Shown here piece by piece: positions 1 to 64,000 of a stretch of 64,000 nt of DNA. The first letter of the stretch is position 1. Each line of letters opens with the position of its first letter. This DNA is from an uncultured Candidatus Saccharibacteria bacterium (GTDB lineage: Bacteria; Patescibacteriota; Minisyncoccia; Phycocordibacterales; UBA9973). The notes under the pieces were generated by a model. That model saw nothing but the letters and a program-made list of their open reading frames with translations, did no database searches and was not told where the DNA came from. Made by a program: the position numbers and the translations under genes. The stretch spans positions 27,556 to 91,555 of the forward strand of contig CAYXYC010000001.1 in assembly GCA_964469225.1 (NCBI GenBank), read 5' to 3'.

Positions 1-1254
1 AATGGAAATGTTGTTGAAACAGGTGGGCAACAGAAAATAATTCATCAAACAAATGATCAACAGGCCATAGCAAGACAATCAAACAATCAAATAAAACATG
101 ACACAGGATCACAGAAATACGAAATTGAAACAGAAGGAAAGTTCAAACCAATTCATCCTGAACGATATCGTGATCACATTGATGGAATAGAAGATATTCA
201 CCGAAGAGATGTCATCGTTGGAAAATCTCCACAGACAACAACTCACGATGGTATTTCATATACGGACTGGAACAAAGCAACAGACAAAATGTTTGATCAC
301 AAAGATTTTCCGAAGGAACATAAGTTCCCGTCATACAATGCATATGAACGAGATCGTGAACTGCAAAATCTTTTTGGGTATGGAGAAAAAACAGATGGAA
401 AAGTTGTAATGGACTATTTCCGCGAACGAAGCGAATGGAATATTATTCAGAAAATGCCGGCATCATACTTTTTTAATATAAACAAACACATTAGTGAGAT
501 TCCACCAGAGGATCTAAATAGACTAATGGAAGCAGGCATCGTGACAGATAATTATTTCACAAAAGGAGGTATTACGATTCATAATTATTCATTCACAAAC
601 AAAGACGAACTTGTCCGACTTGCAACTGCGTATTCACATGTAAACCCAAGCGAAGTTGGTCCATACCAGAACGAAACGATTGAACAATATGTCGAACGAA
701 TGACAAAAGATATTCATCAAGCAGATGACGGAACACTCTTTGCAAGAAAAGATGTTGCAAAAACAGATTTACAAGGTAAACCAGTTTCGCATAGCGGGCG
801 AGGTGGTAGTGGTGGTGGACGACCACAGAGAGCACCACTCCCACAGTCACAACCATTCCCATATCCAGTAGGTGGAGGAGCGGGCGGAGGAGTAATTTCT
901 CCAACGAATGGAGTTTACAATACTGGAGGAGTTCCGACGATTGCTCCAACCCGTGGAGTATACAACACAGGATTCCCTCAATTTAATACTGGAGGAAATG
1001 GACCATTCTATGAGCCAGGAGTGATGGGAGGAATGATGCAGAACGGCAGAAATCTTGGAAATGATGCAGTAATTGGTGGAGTAAATGTTGCCGGCACAGC
1101 AATAAACGAAGCAGTTAGAGAAGCGCAGGGAGCAAGTGACGGACAGGGTGGTGAAAGAATTTTAAGTGTCGCATTACAAGAAAGTGTTCGTATTGGTGTT
1201 AATGGACTTTTGAGAGGAATGGGAATGTCGGGAGGTGGAGGAGTATGGAGATAA
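1..1254 (+). CDS. hypothetical protein, 5'-truncated at window edge; Gly-rich low-complexity C-terminus
   Basis: Frame 1 is open from nt 1 with no stop before 1254, so the ORF-track 289..1254 is the tail of a longer ORF. C-terminal GGSGGG/GGGAGGG repeats; no recognisable catalytic motif. Confidence 0.5.
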   Translation, partial: NGNVVETGGQQKIIHQTNDQQAIARQSNNQIKHDTGSQKYEIETEGKFKPIHPERYRDHIDGIEDIHRRDVIVGKSPQTTTHDGISYTDWNKATDKMFDHKDFPKEHKFPSYNAYERDRELQNLFGYGEKTDGKVVMDYFRERSEWNIIQKMPASYFFNINKHISEIPPEDLNRLMEAGIVTDNYFTKGGITIHNYSFTNKDELVRLATAYSHVNPSEVGPYQNETIEQYVERMTKDIHQADDGTLFARKDVAKTDLQGKPVSHSGRGGSGGGRPQRAPLPQSQPFPYPVGGGAGGGVISPTNGVYNTGGVPTIAPTRGVYNTGFPQFNTGGNGPFYEPGVMGGMMQNGRNLGNDAVIGGVNVAGTAINEAVREAQGASDGQGGERILSVALQESVRIGVNGLLRGMGMSGGGGVWR

Positions 1255-1279
1255 AATTTATTAATTAATATAAAAAATA

Positions 1280-1585
1280 ATGTACAACACAATCAATAAT
1301 ACAATTATCACGACTCTCGGAATAAACGCACTTCCAGTTGATCAACAAAAAGAAGCAATTGAACGCCTTGGTGGATTGGTTTATCAAGAAGTAATGCTTC
1401 GTGTCGTTGACCAAATGGAAGAAGCTGATAAAGATGAGTTTGAAAAATTACTCGCAACAAATCCTGACCCGGAAACAATGTTTGAATTCATCGCTGAAAA
1501 AGTTCCTGAAGTAGATACGATTGTCAAAGAAGAAGCAGAAAAACTCCGCGGTGAGGCAAGCGAGATTATGGGTCAAATTGGATAA
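1280..1585 (+). CDS. small acidic hypothetical protein
   Basis: 101-aa ORF, D/E-rich, followed directly by an intrinsic terminator hairpin. Confidence 0.4.
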   Translation: MYNTINNTIITTLGINALPVDQQKEAIERLGGLVYQEVMLRVVDQMEEADKDEFEKLLATNPDPETMFEFIAEKVPEVDTIVKEEAEKLRGEASEIMGQIG

Positions 1586-1589
1586 TAAA

Positions 1590-1627
1590 AAATCCCTCCG
1601 ATATTGGTCGGGGGGATTTTTTGTTTT
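1590..1627 (+). terminator. rho-independent terminator (hairpin ccctccga...tcgggggg followed by T-run)
   Basis: Inverted repeat with one mismatch followed by TTTTTTGTTTT immediately after the 1280..1585 stop. Confidence 0.6.
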
Positions 1628-1641
1628 AGGCGCGCAATTAC

Positions 1642-2265
1642 CTAATTAATCTTTTTGGGCAAAGGAATGCCACCATTACTTGCTGGCTGTGTTTGATACT
1701 GATACTGTCGTACCGGCTGTTGTTGATACTGAGATGTTTGAGGCTGGGGCGAAAAACTGTACGGAGAATCTTTTTGCCTGCTCCACATTTGTTCATCACC
1801 GAAGTGGTACACCAACAGAAAAACTTGTTTTGCTGGTATGTCTTTTGCCAAAAATCTTTTCTTTGGCTCTAGGTCTCCTTCTTTTACTGGTCTCCACATA
1901 CCATTATCAAAAACAACAGGATTGGCTTCAATGAAAAACGGGCGGGGGAGCGTTGTGAAAAGCTCACCAATGTTAACTTCACCCTTACCAGGAACTTTTA
2001 CCATGAGACTACGCTCAATGTAAATCATTTCGGGGTTTTCACTGTAAGTCGTGTCACCGTTTTGAATCGTCACCTTACGGGCAGTCATCTGCCACATTTT
2101 TAAAGTAACATCCTCTCCAGGAATAGTGATGTCAGCAATGCGAGGAACAGGAAACTCCAACATTTGGCAATAGTAAACCTTTTTGGTATTTGACTGCGCA
2201 TGTAAAGGAACAGGGCTCGCTATTGCTCCAACCAGAGCAAGGGCGAATAATAAAACTTTTTTCAT
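1642..2265 (-). CDS. secreted hypothetical protein (N-terminal signal peptide, Q/P/Y-rich C-terminus)
   Basis: MKKVLLFALALVGAIASPVPLHA signal-like N-terminus; 207 aa. Confidence 0.5.
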   Translation of the reverse strand: MKKVLLFALALVGAIASPVPLHAQSNTKKVYYCQMLEFPVPRIADITIPGEDVTLKMWQMTARKVTIQNGDTTYSENPEMIYIERSLMVKVPGKGEVNIGELFTTLPRPFFIEANPVVFDNGMWRPVKEGDLEPKKRFLAKDIPAKQVFLLVYHFGDEQMWSRQKDSPYSFSPQPQTSQYQQQPVRQYQYQTQPASNGGIPLPKKIN

Positions 2266-9440: not shown

Positions 9441-10940
9441 ATGGAACCACAACACAACAGTAGAAAACGAGCGATTACTATTACGATTATTGTCGTAGCA
9501 ATTCTTTTGCTTGTTGTTTATATTTTGTCTCAAACAACAACAATCTTTGGAACAAAGGGATCATCAACAAGTAATAAAAGTTTTATACCTCTTCTTGGAA
9601 CTTCAAAACAAAAAGCAGTAAACCCGATTGATCAAGGAGAAGAGGTAACCCTTCCAACAGGAACAGTCACGCAGACAACAGGTGGTGGTGAGCCAACAAA
9701 CAACCCGCTCCCAACACCAAATGGCAAAGGTCCATTTGTAGTACTCTCGGTTACACCCAAAACACTTCCAGTTGCTGGTGGCAAAATAAAGCTTACATGG
9801 CAAGGAGAAAATGTCATTTCTTGTATCCCAAGTTGGACAGGAAAGAAAATCACTCAAACAAGTGGCACCTCAAATGAAATCACAGTAAAGAAAACGCGTG
9901 TCTTTGGTATTTCGTGTGCAAACGGACAAGGACAGCAGGCAAGCGCAAGCACACAAGTTACTGTTGGAGAAAATGCCCTTCAGGTATCACTTCGTGCAAC
10001 ACCAAACACGCTCATTGAATCAGGAAATGTTGTTTTAACATGGACAAGCAAGAGCACAGTGAAATCTTGTACACCAGGATGGACAAACAAAAAAGATGCT
10101 GCTCAAGGAGAAGTAACTGTTCCTGTTAGTCAATCACAAACATTTCTAATTAGTTGTACAGATGGCGCTCTAACCGAAATTGCCGAAGCAGATGTTGTTG
10201 TTGGTTCATTTGAAAAAACCCCTCAGTGTCGAGATGGAGTTGATAATGATGGAGACAACGCCGTAGATGCACTAGATAGCGCGTGTCATAGCAATTTTGA
10301 TGCGAGTGACGACACAAGTTATGTTCCAACAATTGCCGACGAGGCGCGTCTTCCAACTGAAACAACAAATGCAGACAGGTGTAAGATTGTAGACGATAAT
10401 CCACTTACATTTACTGATGTTGAAAAACGACAACTTGATCTTCTGCTTCGTCAGTTCTATCGAATCGCGCCAAATCTAAAAACTGAAGATGATGTTGTTT
10501 TTGAAAAAGAAGCTCGTCTTGGATATATTGATCTTGTTAAAGAAGTAAAAAGTCTAACAAAACAATGTTACGCACAACAATATCCAGCAGAAAACAACGC
10601 GGTTCGTGTCGCTCTCGGCGCAACACCGAACTACACAGGCCCTCTTGAAAAGAAAACTAATCCATATTTCCAGCCAGATGGAGTTGTAAGTTCACCATCA
10701 TACATCACAAAAAGTTATATCGAGTCCAAATTTACCGCCCAGCAGAACACAATGATCGCCCAACAAGCACTCGTCGTGTCGAAGCTTGACGCAAAAATTA
10801 AATCTGCACAAACCAACGCTCAGGCAATACTCTTTACACAGTTACGAAACTACGAACAGAACATTCTAGACCAGTTTAAAAACAACATATCAACGGCAAA
10901 TCAATTCATCTTGATAGAAAAACTTCTTCAGGTTTGGTAA
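9441..10940 (+). CDS. membrane-anchored surface protein with two tandem Ig-like repeats and a DxDxDG-type acidic motif
   Basis: N-terminal TM (ITITIIVVAILLLVVYIL). Internal ~100-aa repeats (...TWQGENVISCIPSWTGKK / ...TWTSKSTVKSCTPGWTNKK). CRDGVDNDGDNAVD motif. Confidence 0.5.
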   Translation: MEPQHNSRKRAITITIIVVAILLLVVYILSQTTTIFGTKGSSTSNKSFIPLLGTSKQKAVNPIDQGEEVTLPTGTVTQTTGGGEPTNNPLPTPNGKGPFVVLSVTPKTLPVAGGKIKLTWQGENVISCIPSWTGKKITQTSGTSNEITVKKTRVFGISCANGQGQQASASTQVTVGENALQVSLRATPNTLIESGNVVLTWTSKSTVKSCTPGWTNKKDAAQGEVTVPVSQSQTFLISCTDGALTEIAEADVVVGSFEKTPQCRDGVDNDGDNAVDALDSACHSNFDASDDTSYVPTIADEARLPTETTNADRCKIVDDNPLTFTDVEKRQLDLLLRQFYRIAPNLKTEDDVVFEKEARLGYIDLVKEVKSLTKQCYAQQYPAENNAVRVALGATPNYTGPLEKKTNPYFQPDGVVSSPSYITKSYIESKFTAQQNTMIAQQALVVSKLDAKIKSAQTNAQAILFTQLRNYEQNILDQFKNNISTANQFILIEKLLQVW

Positions 10941-10999
10941 TCTGTGATTTTTGAGGATAAAAAGGGGATTTCTTGTTTAAAAATTGATATACTATTAGT

Positions 11000-13363
11000 G
11001 TGAAGAAACTAACTTCAACGATTATCTTCGTATCTATACTTGCGAGTACATTCTGCGCTCCTTTTTTTGGTAATGGATTTTCTCATTTTCAAATACCTCG
11101 TGCCGAAGCAATAAATGAAGCCAATTCTACTTATGGACTAAGTCAAGAATCTAAAGATGTTTTAAAAGAAGGAGAGGAAGCAAAAAAAGCAACCGCCCCT
11201 GATACCGACCCTGAAATGCTTCCAGCCTGTGGGTTTGATGCTGGGGTGGTACAAGTTGGGAATAGCAACGGAACATTTGTTGGTTGTATTGCTCAGGCAT
11301 TCTATTATGTGCTTTTTGTACCAACATCATATATCTTTGCTCTTTCTGGAATGTTTTTTGATTTCACTTTTGCATATTCTATTGATGATGGATCATACAA
11401 AACACCATTCATTACCCAAGGCTGGGCGCTAATTCGTGATATGGTCAACATGTTCTTTATCTTCGTGCTTCTCTTTGTTGCATTCAAAACAATTCTCAAT
11501 GTTGCGCATGGAAAAACAAAAGAACTTGTAATGAATGTTGTTATCATTGGAATATTGATTAATTTCAGTCTCTTTGCCGCACAAGTGATTGTTGATACAT
11601 CAAATATTCTAGCGCGAGTATTCTACAACGATGACGCAATCAAAATAACTAAGGGTGGTGAGAGGGGTGGTAGCGCACTTTATGACAAAGGAGCAAATGG
11701 TGAAGTGCAACTCTCGGCAGCACTGGTAAATAAAATTAATCCTCAAAACCTTATTAGTCAGGCAAGTAAAGTGAATGACATGTCGACAGTAGGAAACGCG
11801 GATTCTGCCTCTGACCTATCGTCAGACGGAGTACGAACACTAACTGCTGGTACATTTATTCTTGTTACAATTCTTGCTTCAATTGTTAATATTGTTGGAA
11901 TATTCACATTTCTTTCGGTTGGACTTATTTTTGTGGCACGAGTTATAGGGCTCTGGTTTGCAATGATTCTTGCACCGCTTGCATTCTTCACATATACCGT
12001 TCCGTCACTTCAAAATGAAAAGATTTTTGGGTGGAAAAGTTGGTGGTCTGATCTTTTCAGGCTGTCATTCCTGGCACCAATTTTTATATTCTTTATGTAT
12101 CTCATCCTTCGTTTCCTTGAAAGTGGAATGAATTTCATTGGTCTTGATAATCTCACTGGGGCTGAGTGGGTAATCGCGATTATCATTCCTTTTATTTTTA
12201 TAATGATAATGCTCCTTCAAGCAAAAAATATTGCAAAGGATTACGCAGGAACTATTGGTCAGACAATTACGAATTATGTTGCGGCAGCGGGAGGGTTTGC
12301 GCTTGCTGTTGGTACAGGCGGGGCAGCAATGATTGGACGAGGTATGGGGGGCATGGCGGCGCGCGCATCAGCAGGAGAGACACTCACACAACGATTTGCT
12401 GACCCAACCAAAAGGGGAACAATGAAATGGTATCAGAAGGCTGCGGGTTGGTCAGGAAACAAGCTTGGTATGAATAAGGTGTTTGGAAAGACCGTAGTTG
12501 GCGGTAGAGCAACAACCGGCGTTGGTGGAATCCTAAATAGGTCACAAGAAAAAGTTAACAAAGTTGATCACGCAAGACACACAGTAGATGAAGCCAAAGA
12601 AAAGGCTGGACTTAAAGATGTTGCATGGTCACGACTATCTGCAATACAACGGGAAAAAGTTCTTACTGAGTTTAAGAAAACAAATAAAGATAAACTCACA
12701 ACGGTGGCAGAGGAAAAAATAAAAAGTGGCTTAGCGTTCGATACCAGTGGTAACCCAATTCAAGGCTTCAGTGACTACAAGGCAGATAGACACTTAGACG
12801 AAGAACAAGCATACAGAGTGGCCAAGGGTATTACAGGAATGACACCACTAACAGCACCACAACAGGATGAATTAAACAAAAGAAAACTTGCGCTTGATAA
12901 AAAAATTAATAGCGACTACGAGAATACCATACTTAAACCAAATATTAATTTACAAGTATCAGTAGAAGCAGAAAAAGAATTTGAACACGAAAAAGAAGAA
13001 TCCAACAAACAAGTTTCCGGATTCACCCGCGCGACATCTCAGGCAAACACTGGTAGTTGGAATGTTAGCAATCTTTCACAACTTAAACAAGATAAAAGAG
13101 AAGGTGTATTTACCAAGGCCGCAACAGTAAGCACAGCACTTTTGAGTGGGCAATTACGCAATGCAATTGGAGCAATTGGCTTTAAATATGGAAAAGGAGC
13201 AACCGGTGAAGAAAAATACACCAACCAAAGCAAATTTATTGATGATTTGAAAAACGGTATTGCTGAAGCATTCAAAACAGCCAACATTAATGTAACAGTT
13301 AACACCGGCGGTAGTGGAGGAGAAAAGAAAAAAGATGATCACGGTGGCGGAGGGCATCACTAA
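11000..13363 (+). CDS. VirB6/TrbL-like polytopic membrane protein with long hydrophilic C-terminal extension (T4SS-like channel component candidate)
   Basis: Signal-like N-terminus, then at least 6 strongly hydrophobic helices (about 100-420 aa), then a ~350-aa K/E-rich tail ending GGSGGEKKKDDHGGGGHH. Its position upstream of VirB3/VirB4-like genes mirrors Tn916 orf15-17. Confidence 0.45.
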   Translation: MKKLTSTIIFVSILASTFCAPFFGNGFSHFQIPRAEAINEANSTYGLSQESKDVLKEGEEAKKATAPDTDPEMLPACGFDAGVVQVGNSNGTFVGCIAQAFYYVLFVPTSYIFALSGMFFDFTFAYSIDDGSYKTPFITQGWALIRDMVNMFFIFVLLFVAFKTILNVAHGKTKELVMNVVIIGILINFSLFAAQVIVDTSNILARVFYNDDAIKITKGGERGGSALYDKGANGEVQLSAALVNKINPQNLISQASKVNDMSTVGNADSASDLSSDGVRTLTAGTFILVTILASIVNIVGIFTFLSVGLIFVARVIGLWFAMILAPLAFFTYTVPSLQNEKIFGWKSWWSDLFRLSFLAPIFIFFMYLILRFLESGMNFIGLDNLTGAEWVIAIIIPFIFIMIMLLQAKNIAKDYAGTIGQTITNYVAAAGGFALAVGTGGAAMIGRGMGGMAARASAGETLTQRFADPTKRGTMKWYQKAAGWSGNKLGMNKVFGKTVVGGRATTGVGGILNRSQEKVNKVDHARHTVDEAKEKAGLKDVAWSRLSAIQREKVLTEFKKTNKDKLTTVAEEKIKSGLAFDTSGNPIQGFSDYKADRHLDEEQAYRVAKGITGMTPLTAPQQDELNKRKLALDKKINSDYENTILKPNINLQVSVEAEKEFEHEKEESNKQVSGFTRATSQANTGSWNVSNLSQLKQDKREGVFTKAATVSTALLSGQLRNAIGAIGFKYGKGATGEEKYTNQSKFIDDLKNGIAEAFKTANINVTVNTGGSGGEKKKDDHGGGGHH

Positions 13364-13384
13364 TTAAATAATTTATTAACATGA

Positions 13385-13664
13385 ATCCCGTTAGAGATTA
13401 TTCATGTTCTATTACACTTACATTTTAAAAAGCAAAAAAGATGGTAGGATATACACTGGATATACAAAAGATTTACGGAAGCGCCTAACACAACACAACG
13501 AAGGTTTATCTACACATACAAAAAACAGGGGTCCATTTATTATTATTTATTACGAAGCATGTATGTCAGAAGAAAAAGCACGGTCGAGAGAATTATATTT
13601 AAAATCTGGTATGGGCAAGCGTTATTTAAAAAATAGATTAGGCGCTTCCTATCTCTAACGGGAT
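13385..13664. repeat. 14-bp perfect inverted repeat pair flanking the GIY-YIG ORF
   Basis: atcccgttagagat (13385-13398) and atctctaacgggat (13651-13664). Confidence 0.7.
13404..13658 (+). CDS. GIY-YIG nuclease family small protein
   Basis: YYTYILKSKKDGRIYTGYTKDLRKRLTQHN matches the GIY-x10-YIG plus R...H/N core; 84 aa. Confidence 0.7.
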   Translation: MFYYTYILKSKKDGRIYTGYTKDLRKRLTQHNEGLSTHTKNRGPFIIIYYEACMSEEKARSRELYLKSGMGKRYLKNRLGASYL

Positions 13665-14721
13665 GAATCAAGAACAACTACAAAAATTAATCGTTGAAAT
13701 GCACAGCAAGCTCTCACCAAGGGCGCAAGAAGTTTTTTCGTCAATGGTGTGGGCTGATACTCTATCTCTGATTGAGAAAAAATATGCGCTCAATGAAACA
13801 CAAATCAGGACACTTGGAACAGAAACAACCCTTGCACTCTTGGGTGTTATTGGAATTGATGAATATGAGAAAGAGGTTGCTCGCGCCCTTGCTCACCCTG
13901 ATGAAATTACAAAAAAGATTCTTGCTGAAATTCGCGAACGAATTTTCTCGGGAATCGTGCAAGACCTAGCCGATGCGCATAGCAAAAACAAAGACAAACA
14001 AATATCAATCGAAGGATACACAGACCCGAGGTTTGCTGGCTTGCCACCGCTACTTCTAAAAGCAATTTCAGAATCAGGGTATCAGAAAAAACTCTACGAA
14101 CTTGGCACAAAACACAAACTTGCAATTGATACAATGGCAGGACTTGAAGATCTGACGATTCAATTTATGAAAGGGGAGATAGAACCAGCACAATACGAAA
14201 AAGAACTTGTTGCCTCACTCGGAATCAAACCAGATGCAAGTAAAGAAATAGCAAATGATATCAATACAACCATTCTTTTGCCAATTCGCGAACTCATGAA
14301 AAAAGAAGAACAGAAAGCGGTAACAACACCCGATATCCCATTCCCGCCATACCGCCCAACAATTAATGCAACACTCCCAAAGACACAATCAGGAATTCTC
14401 GCTACGGCTGGAATCGAAATGATCCATGACGACTACACACAAAACGACAGAAGTGTTCCAACAACAAAAAACGAAGATGGAGTGCTCACACAAGCAGGTA
14501 TTTCGGTTATTGATGAGAAACGCTCTTTAAACGAAGAACATATTCTACCAAGCCCAAGTAATCGCAATCGCGCGCTTGAAGGAATTGAACACCCGGCAAA
14601 AACAATGACCTCAATTCATGAGGAAAAACTCCAAAAAACAACCACAAGTACACCACAAACAAGTGATTACTCCCTACCTAAAATAGGTGGTGGTGATATA
14701 TACCGAGAACCAATCGGATAA
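13663..14721 (+). CDS. hypothetical acidic protein
   Basis: 352-aa ORF with no recognised motifs; its start codon lies inside the right inverted-repeat arm flanking the GIY-YIG ORF. Confidence 0.45.
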   Translation: MNQEQLQKLIVEMHSKLSPRAQEVFSSMVWADTLSLIEKKYALNETQIRTLGTETTLALLGVIGIDEYEKEVARALAHPDEITKKILAEIRERIFSGIVQDLADAHSKNKDKQISIEGYTDPRFAGLPPLLLKAISESGYQKKLYELGTKHKLAIDTMAGLEDLTIQFMKGEIEPAQYEKELVASLGIKPDASKEIANDINTTILLPIRELMKKEEQKAVTTPDIPFPPYRPTINATLPKTQSGILATAGIEMIHDDYTQNDRSVPTTKNEDGVLTQAGISVIDEKRSLNEEHILPSPSNRNRALEGIEHPAKTMTSIHEEKLQKTTTSTPQTSDYSLPKIGGGDIYREPIG

Positions 14722-14743
14722 TCTCGTGATAGAATAAAGATAT

Positions 14744-15178
14744 ATGCAATTTAAGGTTCCACAATTCATTGATATTGAGGATACATTGTTTGGGCCATTT
14801 ACCTTTCGTCAATTCGCCTACCTTGTTGGTGGAGGAGGAATGATTTTTGTATTGTATAAATTGTTACCTTTTTGGATTGCCATTTTCTTTATTCTTCCAA
14901 TCGGAATTTTGACTGGACTTTTAACTTTTTACAAAATCAACAACAAGCCTTTTATTTATTACCTCCAAGCGGGTATTAGTTATGCGCTCACTAGTAAACT
15001 CTATGTCTGGAAACAGCGTCTCGTAAAACCAACACAGAAAAAAGAAGAGGGGAAACCGATTGCCGAGACACCCACTGTTCCAGTCCTCTCATCAAGCAAG
15101 TTGTCTGACTTGGCATGGGGTCTTGATATGCCGACAGAAGAAACGCAAGCAACCGAAAATCAAAAACCATTAAGGTAA
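14744..15178 (+). CDS. VirB3/PrgI-like small membrane protein (two TM helices)
   Basis: 144 aa with two hydrophobic helices (GGGGMIFVLYKLLPFWIAIFFILPIGILTGLL), immediately upstream of the VirB4-like ATPase, as in Gram-positive T4SS (Tn916 orf17 / PrgI). Confidence 0.5.
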   Translation: MQFKVPQFIDIEDTLFGPFTFRQFAYLVGGGGMIFVLYKLLPFWIAIFFILPIGILTGLLTFYKINNKPFIYYLQAGISYALTSKLYVWKQRLVKPTQKKEEGKPIAETPTVPVLSSSKLSDLAWGLDMPTEETQATENQKPLR

Positions 15179-15199
15179 TGTGATATAATAATTTTATAT

Positions 15200-15838
15200 A
15201 TGGCACTCGACGCTCGCGCTGCGCAAGAATTCGTTCCAATTAAAGAAGTTCGTGATGGCATCATTATTCTCAAAGATGGTGGTCTTCGAGCGATTCTAAT
15301 CGCATCATCAATAAACTTATCGCTCAAATCATCTGACGAACAAATTGCCATCATTAATCAATTTCAAAATTTTTTGAATGGACTTGATTTTCCAACACAG
15401 ATTGTTATGCAGTCACGACGACTTGATATCCGACCATATCTCCTGATGCTTGAAAATCGTATCAAAGAACAAACAGAGCAACTCATTAAAATCCAAACCC
15501 GAGAATATATTAATTTCATCCGATCGTTCACTGATGAGGTAAACATCATGACCAAAACATTTTTCGTTGTTGTACCTTACACACCCGCAATCTTAAAATC
15601 AGGCGGTATTATTGAAAATATAATCGGCGGACGATCTAGTTCAGAAAACAAAAAGCAGGGAGATACAGCGGATTTTGAAGAAAAAAGATCACAACTTGAT
15701 CAGCGAGTGAGTGTTATTATGGGAGGATTGGGTAGTCTTGGTATTCGCAGTTCACAACTCAAAACAGAAGAAGTCGTTGAACTCTTCTATAAAACATTCA
15801 ACCCAGGAGATATTAGTCAGGGTATTCAATTAGAATAA
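15200..15838 (+). CDS. VirB4/TraE-like ATPase, N-terminal domain (separate ORF)
   Basis: EFVPIKEVRDGIIILKDGGLRAILIASSINLSLKSSDEQIAIINQF resembles the conserved N-terminus of Gram-positive VirB4 proteins (Tn916 Orf16 / TcpF / PrgJ), recalled from memory. Stop TAA lies 1 nt before the ATG of the next ORF. Confidence 0.5.
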   Translation: MALDARAAQEFVPIKEVRDGIIILKDGGLRAILIASSINLSLKSSDEQIAIINQFQNFLNGLDFPTQIVMQSRRLDIRPYLLMLENRIKEQTEQLIKIQTREYINFIRSFTDEVNIMTKTFFVVVPYTPAILKSGGIIENIIGGRSSSENKKQGDTADFEEKRSQLDQRVSVIMGGLGSLGIRSSQLKTEEVVELFYKTFNPGDISQGIQLE

Positions 15839-15839
15839 T

Positions 15840-17687
15840 ATGTCATTTCTATCATCACTATTTGGCAAAAAAGATTCATCTGGAACCACTTCAAAAGAAG
15901 GGCCTGTTGTAATGCCTGTTCTTCCAACAGAAATTTATCGCGCCGCAACACTTGAACTACAAGACATTATTGCACCATCAGCACTTCAAATTACTCCAAA
16001 GTCTCTAAATCTCGGAGACAAAATTACCAGAACATTCTTTGTTATTTCATATCCGCGATTTTTGACTGATAACTGGTTCTCTCCAATTATCAACCTAGAC
16101 AAAGTGTTTGATGTTTCTATTGCTATCCATCCGATTGAAACAGCAGAAATATTACGATCATTCCAGAAAAAAGTTGCTGAGGTGCAAAGTCAGATTTCTA
16201 TTCGTGAATCCAAAGGTCTCGTTCGCGACCCAATGCTTGATACTGCATATCGTGATCTTGAAAATCTTCGTGATAGTCTGATGCAAGCACAAGAAAAAAT
16301 GTTTAATGTTGGTTTATATATCACCGTTTATGCTGAAAGTGAGACTGATTTGTTCAAAATTGAAAGTGAGATCAAATCTCTCCTTGAATCAAAACTTATT
16401 TATTTGAAACCAGCGCTCTTTCAGCAGGCAGAAGCATTTAAAAGCGTTATCCCACTTGGTACAGATATTTTGGGTATTCACCAAAAGCTTAATACCGAAC
16501 CTCTTTCAAGTCTATTTCCATTTGTATCTTTTGATTTAACATCAGATAAGGGAATTCTTTATGGTGTAAATCGTCACAATTCAAGTCTTATTATTTTTGA
16601 CCGATTTTCACTACCAAACTATAACTCTATTACCTTTGCCACATCTGGTGCTGGTAAATCATACGCAACAAAACTAGAAGTTATCCGAACACTTATGTTT
16701 GATACCGAAGTCATTGTTATTGACCCGGAGCGCGAATACGAATATCTAGCCGAAGCGATGGGTGGACGATATTTCAATATTGCTCTTTCTTCTGATCACC
16801 ACATCAACCCGTTTGATTTACCAATTCCGAGCACCGATGAAACACCCGCCGATGTTTTGCGCGCAAACACAATTAACCTTGTTGGATTATTCCGTATAAT
16901 GCTCGGCGGACTAACGCCAGAAGAAGATTCAATCATTGACCGTGCCATCACAGAAACATATGCGATGAAGGACATCACCGCTGATTCAAATTTTGCTAAT
17001 ATTGAACCGCCACTTTTGACTGATTTTGAAATGGTGCTTGCTGGTATGGAAGGAAGTGAATCAGTTATCCAACGCCTCGCAAAATACACTCGTGGATCAT
17101 GGTCATCGTTCCTTAATCAACCATCAAATGTAGACATAAATAGAAAATTTGTTGTCTTTTCGGTTCGTGACATGGAAGATGAGTTGAAACCAGTCGCAAT
17201 GTATATCGTTACTCACTATATATGGAACGCTGTTCGTAAAAATATCAAAAAACGCCTTCTTGTTGTTGACGAGGCATGGTGGATGATGAAATCAGAAGAC
17301 ACAGCGTCTTTCCTGTATTCAATTGCAAAACGCGGACGAAAATACTATCTTGGGCTTGCGACAATTACCCAAGATGTTGGTGACTTTATGAAAAGTCCAT
17401 ACGGTGTGCCTATCGTAACAAACTCGTCACTTCAACTTCTGCTAAAACAATCCCCATCAACAGTTGATGTTCTCCAAAAAACCTTTAATTTAACAGATGA
17501 AGAAAAATACCTGCTTCTTGAAGCTAATGTCGGGGAGGGAATATTCTTTGCTGGACTAAAGCATGTTGCAGTTAAAACCATTGCATCGTATACCGAAGAC
17601 CAGATTATCACTTCTGACCCATCACAAATCCTTGCAATCAAAAAAGCCCGCGAAGAATTAATCAGTAGTGGACAAAAACCGCTCTAA
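15840..17687 (+). CDS. VirB4/TrbE/CagE-family T4SS ATPase, C-terminal ATPase portion
   Basis: Walker A FATSGAGKSYATK; Walker B / DEAW motif LLVVDEAWWMM; 615 aa. Confidence 0.75.
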   Translation: MSFLSSLFGKKDSSGTTSKEGPVVMPVLPTEIYRAATLELQDIIAPSALQITPKSLNLGDKITRTFFVISYPRFLTDNWFSPIINLDKVFDVSIAIHPIETAEILRSFQKKVAEVQSQISIRESKGLVRDPMLDTAYRDLENLRDSLMQAQEKMFNVGLYITVYAESETDLFKIESEIKSLLESKLIYLKPALFQQAEAFKSVIPLGTDILGIHQKLNTEPLSSLFPFVSFDLTSDKGILYGVNRHNSSLIIFDRFSLPNYNSITFATSGAGKSYATKLEVIRTLMFDTEVIVIDPEREYEYLAEAMGGRYFNIALSSDHHINPFDLPIPSTDETPADVLRANTINLVGLFRIMLGGLTPEEDSIIDRAITETYAMKDITADSNFANIEPPLLTDFEMVLAGMEGSESVIQRLAKYTRGSWSSFLNQPSNVDINRKFVVFSVRDMEDELKPVAMYIVTHYIWNAVRKNIKKRLLVVDEAWWMMKSEDTASFLYSIAKRGRKYYLGLATITQDVGDFMKSPYGVPIVTNSSLQLLLKQSPSTVDVLQKTFNLTDEEKYLLLEANVGEGIFFAGLKHVAVKTIASYTEDQIITSDPSQILAIKKAREELISSGQKPL

Positions 17688-17726
17688 TCCATTGTTTAGG
17701 GTTCGGGAATAGCATATAATAAAAGG

Positions 17727-18695
17727 GTGATTCGTATTTCTCGAACATTATTAATATGTACTATGCTTGCCATCTTTGGCGGAGTAGTGCATTTTTCTTC
17801 GGCAGCAATTGATATTGGAGGAGACGATATTGTAGTAACCGTTTCGCCACAATCTCCTCATGGATACCAAGACACAACAATTACACTTTCGAGCTATGCG
17901 ACAAACTTGAGCCTCGCTTCTATTGAGTGGAAAAAAGATGGGACACCGGTTCTGTCTGGTTTTGGAAAAACAACATATTCATTCAAAACAGGCGCGAGCG
18001 GTACCCCAATTCGTGTCACTATTACAATTGCTCTTTCAGAAGGAATCCAACTTTCAAAAGAAATTCTTATAACACCATCTGATCTCGATATTTTCTGGGA
18101 AGCACGCGATAGTTACACTCCACCATTTTATAAAGGCAAGGCTCTTCCATCATCAGAAGCAGTAATTAAAGTTGTTGCAATTCCAGCCCAAACAAAAAGC
18201 ACATTATCATATTCTTGGAAACAAAATTCATCATCAATTCCTCAATCAAGCGGATACAAGAAAAACACCCTCCTTGTTGTGAATGATATTTTACAATCAG
18301 CTGAAACCGTTTCTGTTGATGTAGCAAGTTCTGATGGCGCGTATGGAGCATCAGCAAATGTTGTTATTCCAATTGTAAGTCCAGACCTTGAGTTTTACAA
18401 AAAAACAGCAGACCAGGGAATCCTCTATGCGCAAGTGCTTGGTAGTGAAACAACACTTGAAGGGGATGATTTAAGTATTGTAGCTGAACCGTATTTTCTA
18501 AATCTTTATGATAAGAAAATGGCTTATAATTATCAATGGAAAATTAATGATCAAGATATCACAACACCCGTAGAACGAAATGAATTAACTATTCAACCGA
18601 ATTCACGCGGGGGGTATACATTGGTTGGGCTTTTGGTTGAAGAATCTAATTCATTATTTCAAAAAATCAGTCGCGTGCTTCGTGTAAATTTTTAA
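17727..18695 (+). CDS. secreted beta-rich repeat protein
   Basis: Signal-like N-terminus (LLICTMLAIFGGVVHFSSAA); internal ~100-aa repeats. Confidence 0.45.
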   Translation: MIRISRTLLICTMLAIFGGVVHFSSAAIDIGGDDIVVTVSPQSPHGYQDTTITLSSYATNLSLASIEWKKDGTPVLSGFGKTTYSFKTGASGTPIRVTITIALSEGIQLSKEILITPSDLDIFWEARDSYTPPFYKGKALPSSEAVIKVVAIPAQTKSTLSYSWKQNSSSIPQSSGYKKNTLLVVNDILQSAETVSVDVASSDGAYGASANVVIPIVSPDLEFYKKTADQGILYAQVLGSETTLEGDDLSIVAEPYFLNLYDKKMAYNYQWKINDQDITTPVERNELTIQPNSRGGYTLVGLLVEESNSLFQKISRVLRVNF

Positions 18696-45572: not shown

Positions 45573-45619
45573 TGTGTTGCGAAATGGGTTTGCATAGTGT
45601 AGATTGTGTTGGTGTAATT

Positions 45620-45691
45620 GGTCCCGTCGTTCAATGGATAGGACGTAACTTTGCGGAAGTTATGATGCAGGTTCGATTCCTGCCGGGATCA
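45620..45691 (+). tRNA. tRNA-Arg (anticodon GCG as read)
   Basis: GGTCCCG acceptor / GTTC D-stem / TAACT-TTGCGGA-AGTTA anticodon arm (G37) / GCAGG-TTCGATT-CCTGC T-arm / CGGGATC-A. Its 3' 15 nt are repeated 4.1 kb downstream. Confidence 0.7.
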
Positions 45692-47180
45692 CCCCATAGG
45701 AATTAGAGGTCAGAAATGTCTCTTTTACTTTGAAAAGACTACATATTTCTGCGGTTCGAAATTTTTCTCCGTCAAAGGTGATACCTTTTGGAAAATCGAA
45801 CCACTGTAACTGAATTTTTTCATTCGGTTCTGCTAAAGCCCATGTATTACCAGGGTTTTTTAGGAAGTCGGCAATAAAATCGAGCATGGCTTCAATCCCA
45901 ACAAATTCCTGTGACGAACCTGTTATGGCCGCATTTGCTTTCAGCAGTTCTGATTCTATATACCCCAATTGTTCACGCAAAATACTATCGGTAATTACTC
46001 CGTCAAGGTTTTTCTGAATGAGTATTCTTTGTTTTTGCTTCAGGTTGCTGATATGTTGTTCAAGTTGCTTCGATTCCTTTTGCTCGGTTTCCTGTTCCCC
46101 GATGAGGTGTTTTTTAATAAGTTTGTAGAACTTGTCATAATGCTTGTCATTCAGACTAAACTTGTTTAAAAAACTTTTAAATTCATTCTCGAATGTTTCT
46201 TTTCTAAAGTTAGCAAATTTGATATGTAGGAAACGGTAATATGGATACATGGTGCTTCTGCCTTTAGCCCAACAACCCGTCAACTTGGTGCCTGTTGAAT
46301 GACTAACAAATCGCCTTAATGGAAAGTCAGGGTGTTCGGTCAGATACTTGAAATTTCTACGGGTACGATGTTTGACTACTTGCTGTACCTGTTCGAATAA
46401 TTCCTCAGAGATAATTGGTTCATACAATCCTTTGTGCCGTTCTCCAAACTTCACTATCCATCCGGCATAAACTTCATTTCTGAGCATCATATAGAAATAT
46501 GATTTAACAATAGGCTTGCCGTTTCTGCTTTTTAATTCTTCTCGTATGGCCCATCTGTATATTTCTTCCACTGGAACGATATTTTGGGCGACTTGCTTAA
46601 ACACTTTTCGGACAAGTGGAGCAGTATCATTAGGAGCAATAGTAGCCTTGCCGTTAATCCTGCGGATATTGTCATATCCCACCGGGGCCATCCATACATA
46701 GCGACCTTCGCGCATTGCATCTTTCATTCCTTCAGAACATCGTTCAGCTCGTACCTCGTTATCAAACTGTCCGATACTGGAAATCATATTTTCCATTAAT
46801 CGGCCTGCCGGAGTATCTTCAATATGTTCAGTAGCAGATTCAACACCGACTCCATAGTTTTTTAAAATAATTTTCAAATGCCCATAGTCGTAATTCTGTC
46901 GTGAAAAACGGTCAATCTTATAAAAAATCACTGCACTGATGCGGTTTTTTGACAATGCACAATAATGAAGCAACCGTTGTAGTTCTGTACGGTTTTGAGT
47001 CTTGGCACTTTCTCCCTTTTCAAGAAAAATCTCAGCCACGTCATATCCATTTTTGAGAGCATATTCTTTACAAATACGTTCCTGCGAACTGAGACTATTC
47101 CCGTCATCAACTTGCTCCTTTGTCGATAGCCGGACACGATTTTTACATCCTGTCCGGTTTTTTATATACCCACAATTCAT
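45660..47180 (-). CDS. large serine recombinase (integrase) of the integrated element
   Basis: Catalytic-domain motifs RVRLSTKEQ (Ser nucleophile), SLSSQERICKEYALKNGY, ...IFYKIDRFSRQ, followed by recombinase and coiled-coil regions. The last 11 codons (…VIPAGIEPAS) are encoded by the complement of the tRNA-Arg 3' end. Confidence 0.8.
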   Translation of the reverse strand: MNCGYIKNRTGCKNRVRLSTKEQVDDGNSLSSQERICKEYALKNGYDVAEIFLEKGESAKTQNRTELQRLLHYCALSKNRISAVIFYKIDRFSRQNYDYGHLKIILKNYGVGVESATEHIEDTPAGRLMENMISSIGQFDNEVRAERCSEGMKDAMREGRYVWMAPVGYDNIRRINGKATIAPNDTAPLVRKVFKQVAQNIVPVEEIYRWAIREELKSRNGKPIVKSYFYMMLRNEVYAGWIVKFGERHKGLYEPIISEELFEQVQQVVKHRTRRNFKYLTEHPDFPLRRFVSHSTGTKLTGCWAKGRSTMYPYYRFLHIKFANFRKETFENEFKSFLNKFSLNDKHYDKFYKLIKKHLIGEQETEQKESKQLEQHISNLKQKQRILIQKNLDGVITDSILREQLGYIESELLKANAAITGSSQEFVGIEAMLDFIADFLKNPGNTWALAEPNEKIQLQWFDFPKGITFDGEKFRTAEICSLFKVKETFLTSNSYGVIPAGIEPAS

Positions 47181-47644
47181 CCAACCACGTATTATTAACT
47201 GTAAAATCACATTCAAAGAGAGCACTACTAGAGCGCAACATTTCATTTACAGGACAATCTTAAATAATACGATATGGTAAAACACACAATAGATATACTA
47301 CGGGACAAATAAAAAGAGGGGCCAACCCGTAGATTGAACCCCACCTTTGTAAAATTTTGCATTTACTTGAATCAAAGGAACTTGTAAATCCGATTCGTGT
47401 AAATTTTATCAAAGTAAAGCAATTCTTGCAAATTATCCAATAGGTGGGTTCAGATATGGCAGGGTTCCCTGCGGATGATCGTTCTTAGAGAGCGACCACC
47501 ATCCCATATTGCAAAGCTTCTTTTCTCAGAGTGCTTTCCGGCACCCTGTGTGTCATCAGTATTTCTGATACTGGTGGCGTGCGATGTAACCTGTCAGTCG
47601 GTATTTCAGTTCAGATTTTTAACAAATTTTTAAATAGTAATTAA

Positions 47645-60810: not shown

Positions 60811-62871
60811 ATGATTACGGATCAGCTCGTTTCTTATATTGAAAGTCAATTAAAGAAAAATCTTCCAAAAGAAATTATCACTTCTCGTCTCTTGCAAGCT
60901 GGTTGGCACCCGCTCGATATTGAGGAGGGGTTTTTGGCTATTGCTTCATCTGGTGTTCCGTCACCCGTTCCGTCACCCGTGATATCAACTACTACAACTG
61001 AATCAAAAAATGAAGTAAAGGTTGATCCGTATCGTGAATTACCTAATGGGAATTCTCCCCAGACAAATACCTCGCCTAAAGTGTGGATACCTCGCAGTGT
61101 TGCGCCAACTGAAGAAATTACCGTGCAACCAACCCAAGTAAAACCTGCCTCTCCATCACCAATTGTTGCTGAAACAGATCGAACCCAAAAATTCCAATCA
61201 AAAGTATATGTGTATGTTATTCCAACGAAAGACGACAAGGCGCAAACTGCCGCTCAGGTGATAAAAGATGATTTATTCCCAGCGCTTTCACCTAAAGAAA
61301 TTGTATCTCCTTTACCTGAGCAATTACCAAAACATGATGGCCAGAGTGTTTCAGGGGTTGCGCCAACTAATCAAGAACAAAAACCTATCCCAGTCACACA
61401 ACAAAATGTACATCAATATGTTTCTCCCACACAAATAAATAATATTTTACCAGTTGATGCACAGATTTCTTCTTCATCATCACCACGACGATTTGGTAAA
61501 ATTGCAAGCGTAGTATTACTAATACTTGTTCTTTTTGGTTTGGTTTTTAGTATTAAATCTGGGTATATAAAAATCCCTTCTTTTTCATTTGTGAAAAAAG
61601 ACCCGAAGGCTGTTATTTTATCTCTTGGTTCATCACTTAAAAAATATGATGCATACTCTGCTGATACAAAAATTGTTATTTCTTCACCTCTTCTAACCGA
61701 CATCACAACAGGTATTTTAAGTGGGGAAGCGGTGTCTTCAACTGAGCGAGATTTCATTTCTTTTTCGATAAAAAGCACGATTGATAATCGTCAATCATTA
61801 CTTGCAAGTCATGCGGTTACAATTCAGAGTTCGCTTCTTACTCAAGCACTTCTCGTTTCAGTTGTTCGTATGTCTGATATAACAACAATCCGCATTCCTG
61901 ATTTGGAAAGTATTTTTCAGTCATCAGCTCCACCTGCATCTCTTGTTTCAATTAATGACAATGATTTACCCCGTGTTATTGATGAATTGCCTTTCTCAAT
62001 GAAAATCTTTATTAAAAATAGTGATACCGCACACCTTTTTTCAAAGGGTATTTCTCCATACATAAAAACAGAATCACGAAATACGCTCAAAGAGCTTGTA
62101 TCATCATTGAGCATCAACCAAAAATCTGACGAAGTGATTCATGATGTAAAAACACATCATTACAATATTAATGTTGACCGTCCAACAGTAAAACGATTCC
62201 TCTCTGAACTTATTAGAATATCTGGATTTTCATTTGATGAAAACAATAAATCGCGTGTTGATGAAGCGATAGGTTCGCTCGGCGTAGATTCGTTTGAAGT
62301 ATGGATTGGTGATGGTGACAATATTCTTCATCAGTACAAGTTGTCGCTTTCGTTGCCTCTCTCAAAAGTAATTGGTTTTGATGATAATGGTATTGCGGGA
62401 AATGAAGTCCATATTGATATAACTGGTTCGTTCTATGATTTTGATATTCCTCATGTTATTGAACTCCCGCAAAATGCAACTAACTTTTCGCAATTTGTAA
62501 ATACAATTAGAGATTTCAAAATTAAAAATACACTCTCATCTTTTACTTCACAGGCAAAGGGATTGCAGAAAATCGAAGGTCGCTATGGTCGTGTTCCTAA
62601 TGGAACGGGGAGTTGTCTTTCTCCTGTTTCTGGATCACTTTTCTCTCCGACTGGGCATGCTGATAAGGCCCACGCGCAAGTTGCTTTAATTGCAGGCGCA
62701 ATGAACACGCTTCTTTCATCAACAACACATGCACCTGTTTGTTATTCAACAGCATCTGCGTGGCTCGTTGCGGCACCGCTTTCAAGCGATTCATCTCTAA
62801 TCTTTTGTGCTGACAGTACTGGCGCGAACAAGACTCTCTCTTTAATGCCTCGTGGTACAACTTGCAAATAA
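60811..62871 (+). CDS. bitopic membrane protein with large extracytoplasmic domain
   Basis: Cytoplasmic N-domain with PSPVPSPV linker, TM IASVVLLILVLFGLVFSI, then ~440-aa C-terminal domain. Confidence 0.5.
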   Translation: MITDQLVSYIESQLKKNLPKEIITSRLLQAGWHPLDIEEGFLAIASSGVPSPVPSPVISTTTTESKNEVKVDPYRELPNGNSPQTNTSPKVWIPRSVAPTEEITVQPTQVKPASPSPIVAETDRTQKFQSKVYVYVIPTKDDKAQTAAQVIKDDLFPALSPKEIVSPLPEQLPKHDGQSVSGVAPTNQEQKPIPVTQQNVHQYVSPTQINNILPVDAQISSSSSPRRFGKIASVVLLILVLFGLVFSIKSGYIKIPSFSFVKKDPKAVILSLGSSLKKYDAYSADTKIVISSPLLTDITTGILSGEAVSSTERDFISFSIKSTIDNRQSLLASHAVTIQSSLLTQALLVSVVRMSDITTIRIPDLESIFQSSAPPASLVSINDNDLPRVIDELPFSMKIFIKNSDTAHLFSKGISPYIKTESRNTLKELVSSLSINQKSDEVIHDVKTHHYNINVDRPTVKRFLSELIRISGFSFDENNKSRVDEAIGSLGVDSFEVWIGDGDNILHQYKLSLSLPLSKVIGFDDNGIAGNEVHIDITGSFYDFDIPHVIELPQNATNFSQFVNTIRDFKIKNTLSSFTSQAKGLQKIEGRYGRVPNGTGSCLSPVSGSLFSPTGHADKAHAQVALIAGAMNTLLSSTTHAPVCYSTASAWLVAAPLSSDSSLIFCADSTGANKTLSLMPRGTTCK

Positions 62872-63298
62872 TATGACTACCGAACTTTTCTTTACTTTAT
62901 GTGTTAGTGCACTAGGTCTTTATGGGTTTTTGCTCGCATCTCATATTCATTCAAAAAAAGCGCAAAAGACAAAATTAGTATGTCCAATGCGTTCGAATTG
63001 TGATACTGTTATACATTCTGATTACTCGACTCTTTTTGGCATTTCAGTTGAAGTACTGGGAATGATTTATTATGCGTTTATTGGTGGAGTATACGGTCTT
63101 ATTTTTGTTTTTGGTTATTCTTCGCCTTTAATATTTCTCGTATTGTTATGGTGCTCACTTGGAGCGGTTGTTTTTTCTATCTATCTCGTACTCATCCAAG
63201 CACTCGTGCTCAGGCAGTGGTGCTCATGGTGCTTGATGTCTGCGAGCATCACGATACTTATTTTTCTGGTGTCATATTGGCATTTGGGCCTCATCTAG
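62852..63298 (+). CDS. vitamin K epoxide reductase (VKOR) family membrane protein
   Basis: Loop cysteines CPMRSNC and TM CxxC (CSWC); 148 aa, 4-5 TM. Confidence 0.65.
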   Translation: MVQLANNMTTELFFTLCVSALGLYGFLLASHIHSKKAQKTKLVCPMRSNCDTVIHSDYSTLFGISVEVLGMIYYAFIGGVYGLIFVFGYSSPLIFLVLLWCSLGAVVFSIYLVLIQALVLRQWCSWCLMSASITILIFLVSYWHLGLI

Positions 63299-63365: not shown

Positions 63366-63438
63366 GGTGCCTATAGTGTAATGGTTAGCACTAGAGTTTG
63401 TGGAACTCTCAGTTCGGGTTCAAATCCCGGTAGGCACC
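63366..63438 (+). tRNA. tRNA-His (anticodon GTG) with G-1
   Basis: G-GTGCCTA...AGAGT-TTGTGGA-ACTCT...GGGTTCAAATCCCGG-TAGGCAC-C. Confidence 0.8.
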
Positions 63439-64000
63439 CAATTTAGTATCTATTATAACTTTGCTTTTTTCTTTACTACTAAAGACTTTTTGTTGTTTTT
63501 GGTTCTTGTAAGTGATGATGTTTAGTCGCATCAATTCCTGAAATAGTGGGTGGTATCGCTCTTTTATTATAACGCCATCTACTACATCAAAACCATCAAA
63601 GAAAAAATCTATAAAGCGTTTCTGTAAGCCTTCTGATGCGTTCATGTATGTACCATAAATATCTTTAGTGAAATTCAAGACTTCACTAGCTCTTTCAATG
63701 TCAACGTCCTTAGCTTTCTTTAATTTACCAAGCCTTTCATGAATTTTATTAATCTCAGAATTTATTTCTTTAGTAATACGGCTGTAGCTCCCTTTTGGGA
63801 GTGTCTGGTCTAGTAATCGTTCTTCTGCAACTCTAAATTTAGCTTCCCAAGCATTCTTTTGGTTGATTAGCCTTCTTTGGTTTATATCGTACTCTTTTCT
63901 ACGCCCCAAAAATGTTGCTCTGACTTTCTCAATAATTGAGTTAACAAATCCAGATTCGAACTGTAAATCTTTGAATTTATCGGCCACTTGATTTTCGAGT
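63409..64000 (-). CDS. 3' portion of an ORF continuing beyond the window; possible recombinase C-terminal domain; last codons overlap tRNA-His
   Basis: Minus-strand ORF open to the window edge; ends ...GAYRDLNPN, encoded by the complement of the tRNA-His T-arm/acceptor. Same arrangement as the serine recombinase at tRNA-Arg. Confidence 0.4.
   Translation of the reverse strand, partial: LENQVADKFKDLQFESGFVNSIIEKVRATFLGRRKEYDINQRRLINQKNAWEAKFRVAEERLLDQTLPKGSYSRITKEINSEINKIHERLGKLKKAKDVDIERASEVLNFTKDIYGTYMNASEGLQKRFIDFFFDGFDVVDGVIIKERYHPLFQELMRLNIITYKNQKQQKVFSSKEKSKVIIDTKLGAYRDLNPN

Follow-up and report, generated by a model that had tools for sequence, protein, structure and literature searches.

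Serine integrases are the main tools for large DNA insertion into genomes, and their natural targets are mostly protein-coding or intergenic sites. In a survey with TIGER, t(m)RNA genes held 14 of 297 serine integrase (S-Int) islands; the authors described these enzymes as 'not known for targeting tRNA genes' and treated such targeting as unreported and needing proof (Mageeney et al. 2020, PMC7192596). In the integration-dependent immunity of mycobacteriophage BPs and its relatives, attP lies within the repressor gene, and integration, which is carried out by a tyrosine integrase, swaps the 3' end of that gene (PMC4557955). Our search of the literature on serine integrases of the candidate phyla radiation (CPR) at tRNA genes found nothing specific. 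Here we analyse a stretch of 64,000 nucleotides of contig CAYXYC010000001.1 (the window), at the edge of which a minus-strand open reading frame (ORF) runs into the 3' end of a tRNA-His(GTG) gene. We put at roughly 90% the probability that this ORF belongs to an integrase gene, that the gene marks the tRNA-side boundary of a mobile element inserted at the 3' extremity of tRNA-His(GTG), and that the host is a Nomurabacteria-like member of the CPR.

A large serine recombinase that reads into tRNA-His

On the minus strand, 196 codons run stop-free from position 63999 to the C-terminus ...KLGAYRDLNPN (...IIDTKLGAYRDLNPN), and the stop codon lies inside a tRNA-His gene whose RNA folds into a cloverleaf that includes the extra G-1:C73 pair (z = -4.4). 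The segment shared by the two genes comprises the 3' strand of the tRNA acceptor together with the T-arm (Table 1). An earlier note on this DNA had described an ORF open to the window edge and ending within tRNA-His, on which ARAGORN and the translation agree; the visible C-terminal stretch that it reported is real, but is 196 residues long and not 190. Pfam gave no significant match for the 196 visible residues alone, and identification therefore needed the full-length sequence. The window was extended with two contigs. The first, L006 (ENA contig NODE_2974), was found via the exact sequence of the neighbouring 686-residue protein; it differs from the window at 22 of 13,190 nucleotides and extends 1.8 kb past the window end. 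The second, the Logan contig L010, is 100% identical over 617 nucleotides (63384..64000) and reaches window-equivalent position 66920. In both contigs the full ORF encodes 532 residues (window-equivalent 63409..65007), the 196 residues of the window form the exact C-terminus of the 532-residue protein P0005 from public assemblies, and the 532-residue protein is identical in two independent assemblies. The catalytic domain falls outside the window; its sequence comes from L006, L010 and P0005, which are identical to the window protein over the shared part.

What the window shows of this gene is thus the last 196 codons for a large serine recombinase (serine integrase) of 532 residues, spanning the coiled coil, the end of the zinc ribbon and the tail. 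In the full-length protein Pfam detected the Resolvase domain (PF00239, 1.1e-27, residues 12-159) and the Recombinase domain (PF07508, 4.2e-9, residues 193-277), and the N-terminus carries the serine nucleophile motif GYCRVSTDDQ. In an alignment of 40 homologues R17, V18, C300, H303 and C322 were invariant, S19 was present in at least 90% and C328 was nearly invariant; F469, F473, G478 and I480 were conserved in the family alignment. Sequence matches in the PDB were the TP901-1 and A118 integrases, and NCBIfam gave matches to XisF and CcrB, both sub-threshold. In an AlphaFold2 model (predicted local distance difference test score, pLDDT, 82.7) the catalytic and recombinase domains are joined by a zinc ribbon that two long helices interrupt; a helix at residues 124-157 is followed by an alpha/beta domain (169-281), strands occupy 298-350 and 470-500, the helices at 352-399 and 405-448 reach pLDDT 85-95, and residues 502-532 are disordered. 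The top Foldseek matches were the full-length cryo-electron microscopy structures of the Bxb1, PhiC31 and LI integrases (E = 2e-17 to 1e-9, ~530 columns). The K/E-rich, coiled-coil-like segment of the earlier note is the coiled coil of the integrase, and the F/D-rich segment that it mentioned (FIDFFFDGFDVVDGVIIKERY) is likewise present, as part of the second half of the zinc-ribbon domain. Its suggestion of a second integrase or element with a catalytic domain upstream was borne out by the extension, which yielded the full-length ORF with its Resolvase domain, element-type genes and an element-specific RNA.

Homology searches returned 167 proteins at E<=1e-20, of which the named ones are called 'recombinase family protein' and come from Nomurabacteria, Yanofskybacteria, Minisyncoccia and the 'Patescibacteria group'. 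That the 196 residues form the C-terminus of P0005, and that more than 160 homologues reach this threshold, rules out a chance ORF. The host is a Nomurabacteria-like CPR bacterium with a tiny genome, and a scan of GTDB gave one match, with 75% identity, in the Candidatus Nomurabacteria metagenome-assembled genome L008, where the order of tRNA genes is as in the window (His, Leu-gag, Arg-tct, Val-tac, Ser-tga). Orthologues of 66-75% identity (L001/L002, L008, L091 and L092-L095) have the same orientation and 3' ends within tRNA-His, and host synteny is kept; the adjacency of tRNA-His to a VKOR-family gene, which in the window lies directly upstream of the tRNA, recurs in L001 and L002. Among 120 family clusters inspected (39-100% identity), 58 end in an antisense tRNA T-arm peptide (xSNP, xLNP and similar), and ~45 further members end 0-3 codons past the conserved ...VIIxxxLG. 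Because tRNA-antisense C-termini recur among these 120 members, the overlap with a tRNA gene is a property of the family and not an accident of this locus.

The window contains another such gene. A serine recombinase of 528 residues, ending ...GIEPAS, overlaps tRNA-Arg(gcg) by 35 nucleotides, which is the same configuration, as the earlier note had recognized. The two proteins share 28% identity over the N-terminal 274 residues only (E = 4e-27), and the likeness of their C-terminal regions that had also been suggested was only weakly borne out, BLASTP detecting none (E = 0.79). Judged by sequence, the tRNA-His integrase is thus a second, distinct large serine recombinase of the window. The first recombinase meets tRNA-Arg(gcg) at tatGGGGT/gatcccggcaggaatcgaacc, with the same type of core at the last bases of the tRNA; a naive search within the window for the P' arm of the tRNA-Arg element returned chance-level scores only.

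Table 1 Coordinates of the features discussed. Positions are those of the window unless a contig is named; in sequences, a slash marks the junction
Feature	Position	Strand	Source or remark
tRNA-His(GTG), intact; probable integration target	63367..63439	+	ARAGORN; Rfam RF00005, 60.6 bits; G-1 at 63366
Integrase gene, 3' part: last 196 codons and stop (63409-63411)	63409..64000	-	Translation
Antisense overlap of integrase ORF and tRNA-His 3' end, 31 nucleotides	63409..63439		ARAGORN and translation coordinates
P-arm half-site within last integrase codons, GTTATAATAGA-N9-GGGT (GTTATAATAGATACTAAATTGGGT)	63436..63459	-	
Predicted core, ACCC (+) = GGGT (-)	63436..63439		tRNA positions 71-73 and one base; predicted for the window from relatives
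Coiled-coil motif, residues 352-448	63664..63954	-	AlphaFold2; K/E-rich segment
Zinc-ribbon second half, residues ~449-503	63499..63663	-	AlphaFold2; FIDFFFDGFDVVDGVIIKERY forms beta strands 470-485
L001 attR	17721 (L001)		...GTTATAAAAGACGATGAATTGGGT/GCCTACAGGG(tRNA)
L001 attL	10576 (L001)		...GACGATGAATTGGGT/CAGTATTTCAATTTTATTATAAC...
L093 attR	11557 (L093)		...GTTATAATAAACCCACAATTGGGT/GGCTACTGGG(tRNA)
L093 attL	169 (L093)		...CCGCTGACTCAGGGGT/CAGTATCCAAATTTTATTATCTC...
VKOR-family gene, host flank, directly upstream of tRNA-His	62852..63298	+	VKOR domain assigned by Pfam to the gene called in L006, L007
LOOT RNA (RF03000)	L006 14865..14982 = window-equivalent 65675..65792, outside the window		78.6 bits; gathering cut-off 46.4
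LOOT RNA in relatives	L001 13209..13334, L008 6659..6781, L091 6206..6340, L093 8104..8226, L096 7346..7460		
First serine recombinase, 528 residues, ends ...GIEPAS	45660..47246	-	Resolvase and Recombinase domains
tRNA-Arg(gcg)	45619..45694		ARAGORN; overlaps first recombinase ORF by 35 nucleotides

Attachment sites and the integrase frame across attP

Both ends of the element are visible in the relatives L001 and L093, where attR has the form P-GGGT/tRNA and attL the form hairpin-T-run-GGGT/P'. The earlier note had proposed to look some kb away for a second copy of the tRNA-His 3' end, which a serine integrase should not be expected to leave; in these relatives GGGT (ACCC of the tRNA), 4 bp, is the sole sequence common to attL and attR, no direct repeat of the tRNA 3' end was found beyond it, and neither the T-arm nor the acceptor is duplicated at attL. 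In L001 and L093 an inverted repeat (GTTATAATAAA / TTTATTATAAC) has one half in the P arm and the other in the P' arm. Since the P-arm motif GTTATAATARA lies at -24..-14 and its inverted repeat in P' at +13..+23, the dyad is centred on the GT of GGGT, and the crossover dinucleotide is most likely this GT (-), that is AC (+) at 63436-63437. The window, L001, L008, L091 and L093 all have the P-arm motif equally far from the junction, with the P' repeat TTTATTATAAC present in L001 and L093; in the window the motif (63449..63459) encodes the conserved V-I-I. The outer flanks of attL consist of a hairpin and a T-run (L001 9007, L093 169 and several JGI loci), which look like the native terminator of tRNA-His. 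Because the ends of the orthologous elements share only GGGT, the last eight codons and the stop (AYRDLNPN, 63409..63435) are probably host tRNA DNA. In L001 and L093 the site is thus of the serine-integrase type, short, with an imperfect dyad and an identity of a few bp; of the corresponding site the window shows the P and B' arms only. A search of JGI metagenomes with a P' pattern gave 13 further attL-type junctions with varied host flanks.

The orthologous elements suggest how these sites would be used. The integrase would recombine attP on the element with attB on the chromosome, the P arm of attP being the last ~24 bp of the integrase coding sequence; the right half of attB would be the acceptor and T-arm of tRNA-His, and the left half appears to be the tRNA terminator. 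Strand exchange would fall inside the 4-bp core GGGT/ACCC, with GT as its probable point. The predicted empty attB thus reads terminator-GGGT followed by GCCTACCGGGATTTGAACCC, and the predicted attP of the circle reads ...GTTATAATAGATACTAAATTGGGT followed by the P' arm. Because ~4 bp are shared, the whole tRNA body would stay host DNA and no tRNA fragment would be duplicated at the far end; and because attP lies within the last codons of the integrase and exchange takes place at the last bases of the tRNA, the integrated gene would come to overlap the tRNA, its frame reading on into the tRNA antisense strand as far as the first stop (AYRDLNPN and stop). Both integration by attP x attB recombination and excision with a directionality factor are predicted for the 532-residue protein from its class.

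Several points weigh against reading the window as one end of an integrated serine-integrase element. The placement of the crossover comes from two elements with both ends visible. For the window itself, the reading as an element is based on the tRNA-side junction, on the genes beside it and on orthologous elements, since the far end (attL) lies beyond the sequence reached, and we infer the extent of the element, the crossover position in the window and the mobility of the window's copy. Pattern searches of JGI and IMG/VR gave neither an empty attB nor a circular attP junction for the His clade: free attP accounts for 0 of the 13 JGI P'-pattern matches, all of which are attL-type, and IMG/VR had no match to the P' or attP patterns. 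IMG/VR also held no close relative, the best (L011) having 31% identity and the same layout. Finally, the Pfam match to the zinc ribbon (PF13408 Zn_ribbon_recom, 7.4e-5) scored 23.5 bits, below the gathering cut-off of 25.3 bits.

At the sequence level the attP core lies within the integrase ORF, so that integration changes the encoded C-terminus, and the circular form may encode a longer integrase whose tail is replaced upon integration. Indeed, the P' arm at attL continues the integrase frame across the core in both L001 (QYFNFIITVLEDSEYMNGLYSKMTFFRAIQEKE) and L093 (QYPNFIISLLEDAEYMESLYTKYVNIRTVLGRE, then a stop). The 13 JGI P' arms encode QYPNFII(S/T)ILEDxEYMxSLYxK(Y/F)xxIKxEL, with a stop after 31-36 codons. 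Among ten distinct P' arms, and beyond the part fixed by the search pattern, the integrase frame contains 1 stop as compared with 30 and 16 in the other two frames, variation at the three codon positions is 284/280/388 with the third varying most, and 171 codon pairs differ synonymously. In two more distant proteins (P0113 and P0091, 41-43% identity) an alignable tail lies within an intact ORF although the DNA is ~50% different, the second codon positions being most conserved.

These features raise the possibility that the element makes two integrase isoforms, with a ~34-residue P' tail (QYPNFIIxxLEDxEYMxSLYxKYxxIKxEL) on the protein from the circle and 8 tRNA-encoded residues on that from the integrated copy, and that the swap acts as a functional switch. 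Such a swap would shift the balance of integration against excision or alter how stable the enzyme is, and it would extend the reading of an integrated element and not exclude it. Because integration must use protein made from the circular form, the long form would be the one under selection. Other observations point the other way. The His-clade searches gave no free circular attP, and in that clade each of the two P-core-P' junctions comes after an integrase remnant within a tandem array; the bias between codon positions is modest, and the first ~25 bp of P' would be constrained in any case as a predicted protein-binding half-site. Moreover, the tail ORF is intact in islands that have lost the integrase (L101, L103 and L113), the AlphaFold2 model of P0091, in which the helical tail has pLDDT 31-54, is uninformative on docking, and many family members stop 0-3 codons past the core, the tRNA-encoded tail being clearly not conserved. 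Two isoforms that act as a functional switch are conceivable, but we judge this somewhat less likely than not.

Two observations touch on these junctions. In L096 (JGI Ga0613630_000081, 10001..17854) the full-length P0091 reads in frame into a P'-type tail, forming an attP-like junction that lies inside a 68-kb, chromosomal-looking contig and is followed by an N6/N4 methylase and a DEAD helicase, with tRNA-His not nearby; a search there for a tyrosine-type att repeat found no long direct repeat. In L098 (10001..15409) the integrase P0028 (59% identity) ends 3.75 kb from tRNA-His, with His_Phos_1, methyltransferase and Tad4 genes in between; after the core it reads AVVEDVRTIFERRNDATIYIP, a tail common to P0062 and P0097, which may represent a second P' type or a different target.

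We think it improbable that the tRNA-His element is an intact-looking but immobile relic, fixed at tRNA-His with a recombinase that is inactive, decayed or domesticated. Decayed islands and integrase remnants are common at the site (L001 9002..10576, L101, L103, L113 and L114), and no excision product was observed. However, the ORF is of full length with all its catalytic and zinc-ligand residues conserved, and its P-arm motif is undamaged. The two independent assemblies give an identical protein, and the cargo differs between orthologous elements whose integrases are similar, implying turnover.

Far less probable still is a tyrosine-type tRNA island, in which the element would carry a copy of the tRNA 3' half and a direct repeat would mark its far end, as the earlier note implicitly assumed. 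The layout, with an integrase beside the tRNA 3' end, is superficially the same, but the protein is a serine and not a tyrosine recombinase, the two ends of L001 and of L093 share GGGT only, attL lacks any T-arm or acceptor copy, and the attL flank is a hairpin and T-run that resembles the native tRNA terminator.

That a housekeeping or other non-recombinase gene ends in the tRNA by chance, the outcome that the earlier note had named as refuting its proposal and for which the 196 visible residues without a significant Pfam match might have left room, is already refuted by the full-length sequence, domains and fold, which are those of a serine integrase.

Cargo, LOOT RNA and the tRNA-His hotspot

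The probable integrated element at tRNA-His reaches at least window-equivalent position 66920. Past the integrase gene and the window end come ORFs of 64 and 63 residues, a LOOT RNA on the opposite strand, an ORF for a membrane protein of 52 residues and a gene for a SocA_Panacea plus C5-cytosine-methylase protein that runs off contig L010 (L010 1..732 = window-equivalent 66189..66920). A homologue search with this last gene, aimed at walking rightward, gave only a 47% match. Complete relatives measure ~7.1 kb (L001) and 11.4 kb including an insertion sequence (L093), and both junctions are also present in L113 (1115/7962). The small upstream ORF is conserved, L010_64, L091_70 and L093_64 being homologous, and its product is a candidate accessory factor.

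All intact relatives examined have LOOT RNA (70-84 bits); decayed islands and the window itself lack it. In every case it runs antisense to the integrase, no more than ~60 nucleotides upstream of the first ORF of the leftward (cargo) operon, with a slight overlap in L091; the first ORFs after it are non-homologous between elements. A literature search on the genomic context of LOOT RNA found no paper. S-adenosylmethionine (SAM) riboswitch aptamers (RF00162, 55-64 bits) occur inside or adjoining the elements of L008 (5024..5140, minus strand) and L091 (6900..7000, minus strand), upstream of small ORFs that are followed by methylase and helicase cargo.

Behind the conserved integration module the cargo is variable, the first genes and the cargo being mostly non-homologous between orthologous elements. 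It includes a C5 methylase and an SNF2 helicase in L091 (1..4921), Mrr and an SF1 helicase-nuclease in L113 (2052..7136), a terminase-small-like protein in L001 and, elsewhere, an AAA_25 or HTH replication-type protein, a KAP NTPase and Tad4. The cargo of the hotspot is defence-like, and this extends to the SocA_Panacea and C5-methylase fusion of the window's own element.

Because tandem and decayed copies occur at tRNA-His (L001 9002..10576, L113 1115..7962, L103 reverse-complement 702..1723, and L114), integration there has been repeated. In L113 the integrase remnant has 87 codons. From the tandem order it follows that attP has recombined with attR (or attL), a reaction that canonical serine integrases avoid. 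The L114 integrase P0001 (76% identity), the closest P'-tailed relative, has an in-frame TGA at ~262, translated as W in the source call, and its P' module is broken by a TAG at ~550; it is likely a pseudogene remnant in a tandem array. The hotspot also holds integrase-less islands with an MFS transporter or SDR gene, and a 15-nucleotide partial duplicate of the tRNA 3' end.

Separate assemblies of the same strain break within both recombinase elements and tRNA-His (NODE_2974 ends at window ~48212 and 65803, and the Logan contigs L007 and L010 end at 63384..63391), which fits repeats or strain variation. We considered the Logan breaks within the tRNA (63384-63391) as a sign of excision and rejected this, since the break lies off the core and tRNA sequence shared between strains explains it better.

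Comparison with known systems

Together the locus and its relatives would define by sequence a consistent series of sites (attB, attP, attL and attR) for a family of serine integrases that use tRNA-His; these integrases belong to CPR bacteria, a group whose mobile elements have been little explored. Every sequence and fold criterion tested identifies the enzyme as a large serine recombinase, and what is unusual is its tRNA target. It has the same domain order as Bxb1 gp35, PhiC31 Int, A118/LI Int and TP901-1 Int, including a zinc ribbon with an embedded coiled coil and the Ser motif, although identity over the aligned structures is only 12-16%. As with the phage integrases, its att site is short, the dyad imperfect and the core very small; it differs from them in that it targets the tip of a tRNA 3' end and has the P arm within its own last codons. 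The element, too, differs from the phages in that it resides in a CPR host, is small (~7-11 kb in relatives) and is not recognisably a phage.

We tentatively suggest, while regarding the whole as rather unlikely, that these proteins form a large integrase family, found mainly in CPR/Patescibacteria and dedicated to tRNA 3' tips, in which a frame that spans attP would upon integration exchange a conserved ~34-residue C-terminal helix for a few tRNA-antisense codons and so act as a state sensor that sets the balance between integration and excision, with LOOT RNA as a core regulator of the element. If a functional C-terminal swap were true, it would constitute a new and simple control of recombination direction. 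The Rfam entry for LOOT RNA describes an sRNA (small RNA) gene only, whereas here the RNA belongs to the constant part of a family of serine-integrase elements; an orphan RNA thereby gains a genomic home, and tRNA-His is marked as a hotspot that collects defence-type cargo.

The TIGER islands likewise include serine integrases at a tRNA target; here a whole family, largely annotated as Patescibacteria, shows the arrangement, with a T-arm-complement tail in nearly half of the inspected clusters. Islands formed by tyrosine integrases at tRNA genes also have the integrase at or over the tRNA 3' end, a functional tRNA and tandem accretion at a hotspot, but they use another enzyme family and chemistry, and neither their long identical core nor their duplicated tRNA segment is found here. 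For a gene whose 3' end is exchanged by integration, phage BPs is the nearest precedent, a change of C-terminus being common to both systems; unlike in BPs, the gene that crosses attP is here the serine integrase itself, with a functional effect that we hypothesise.

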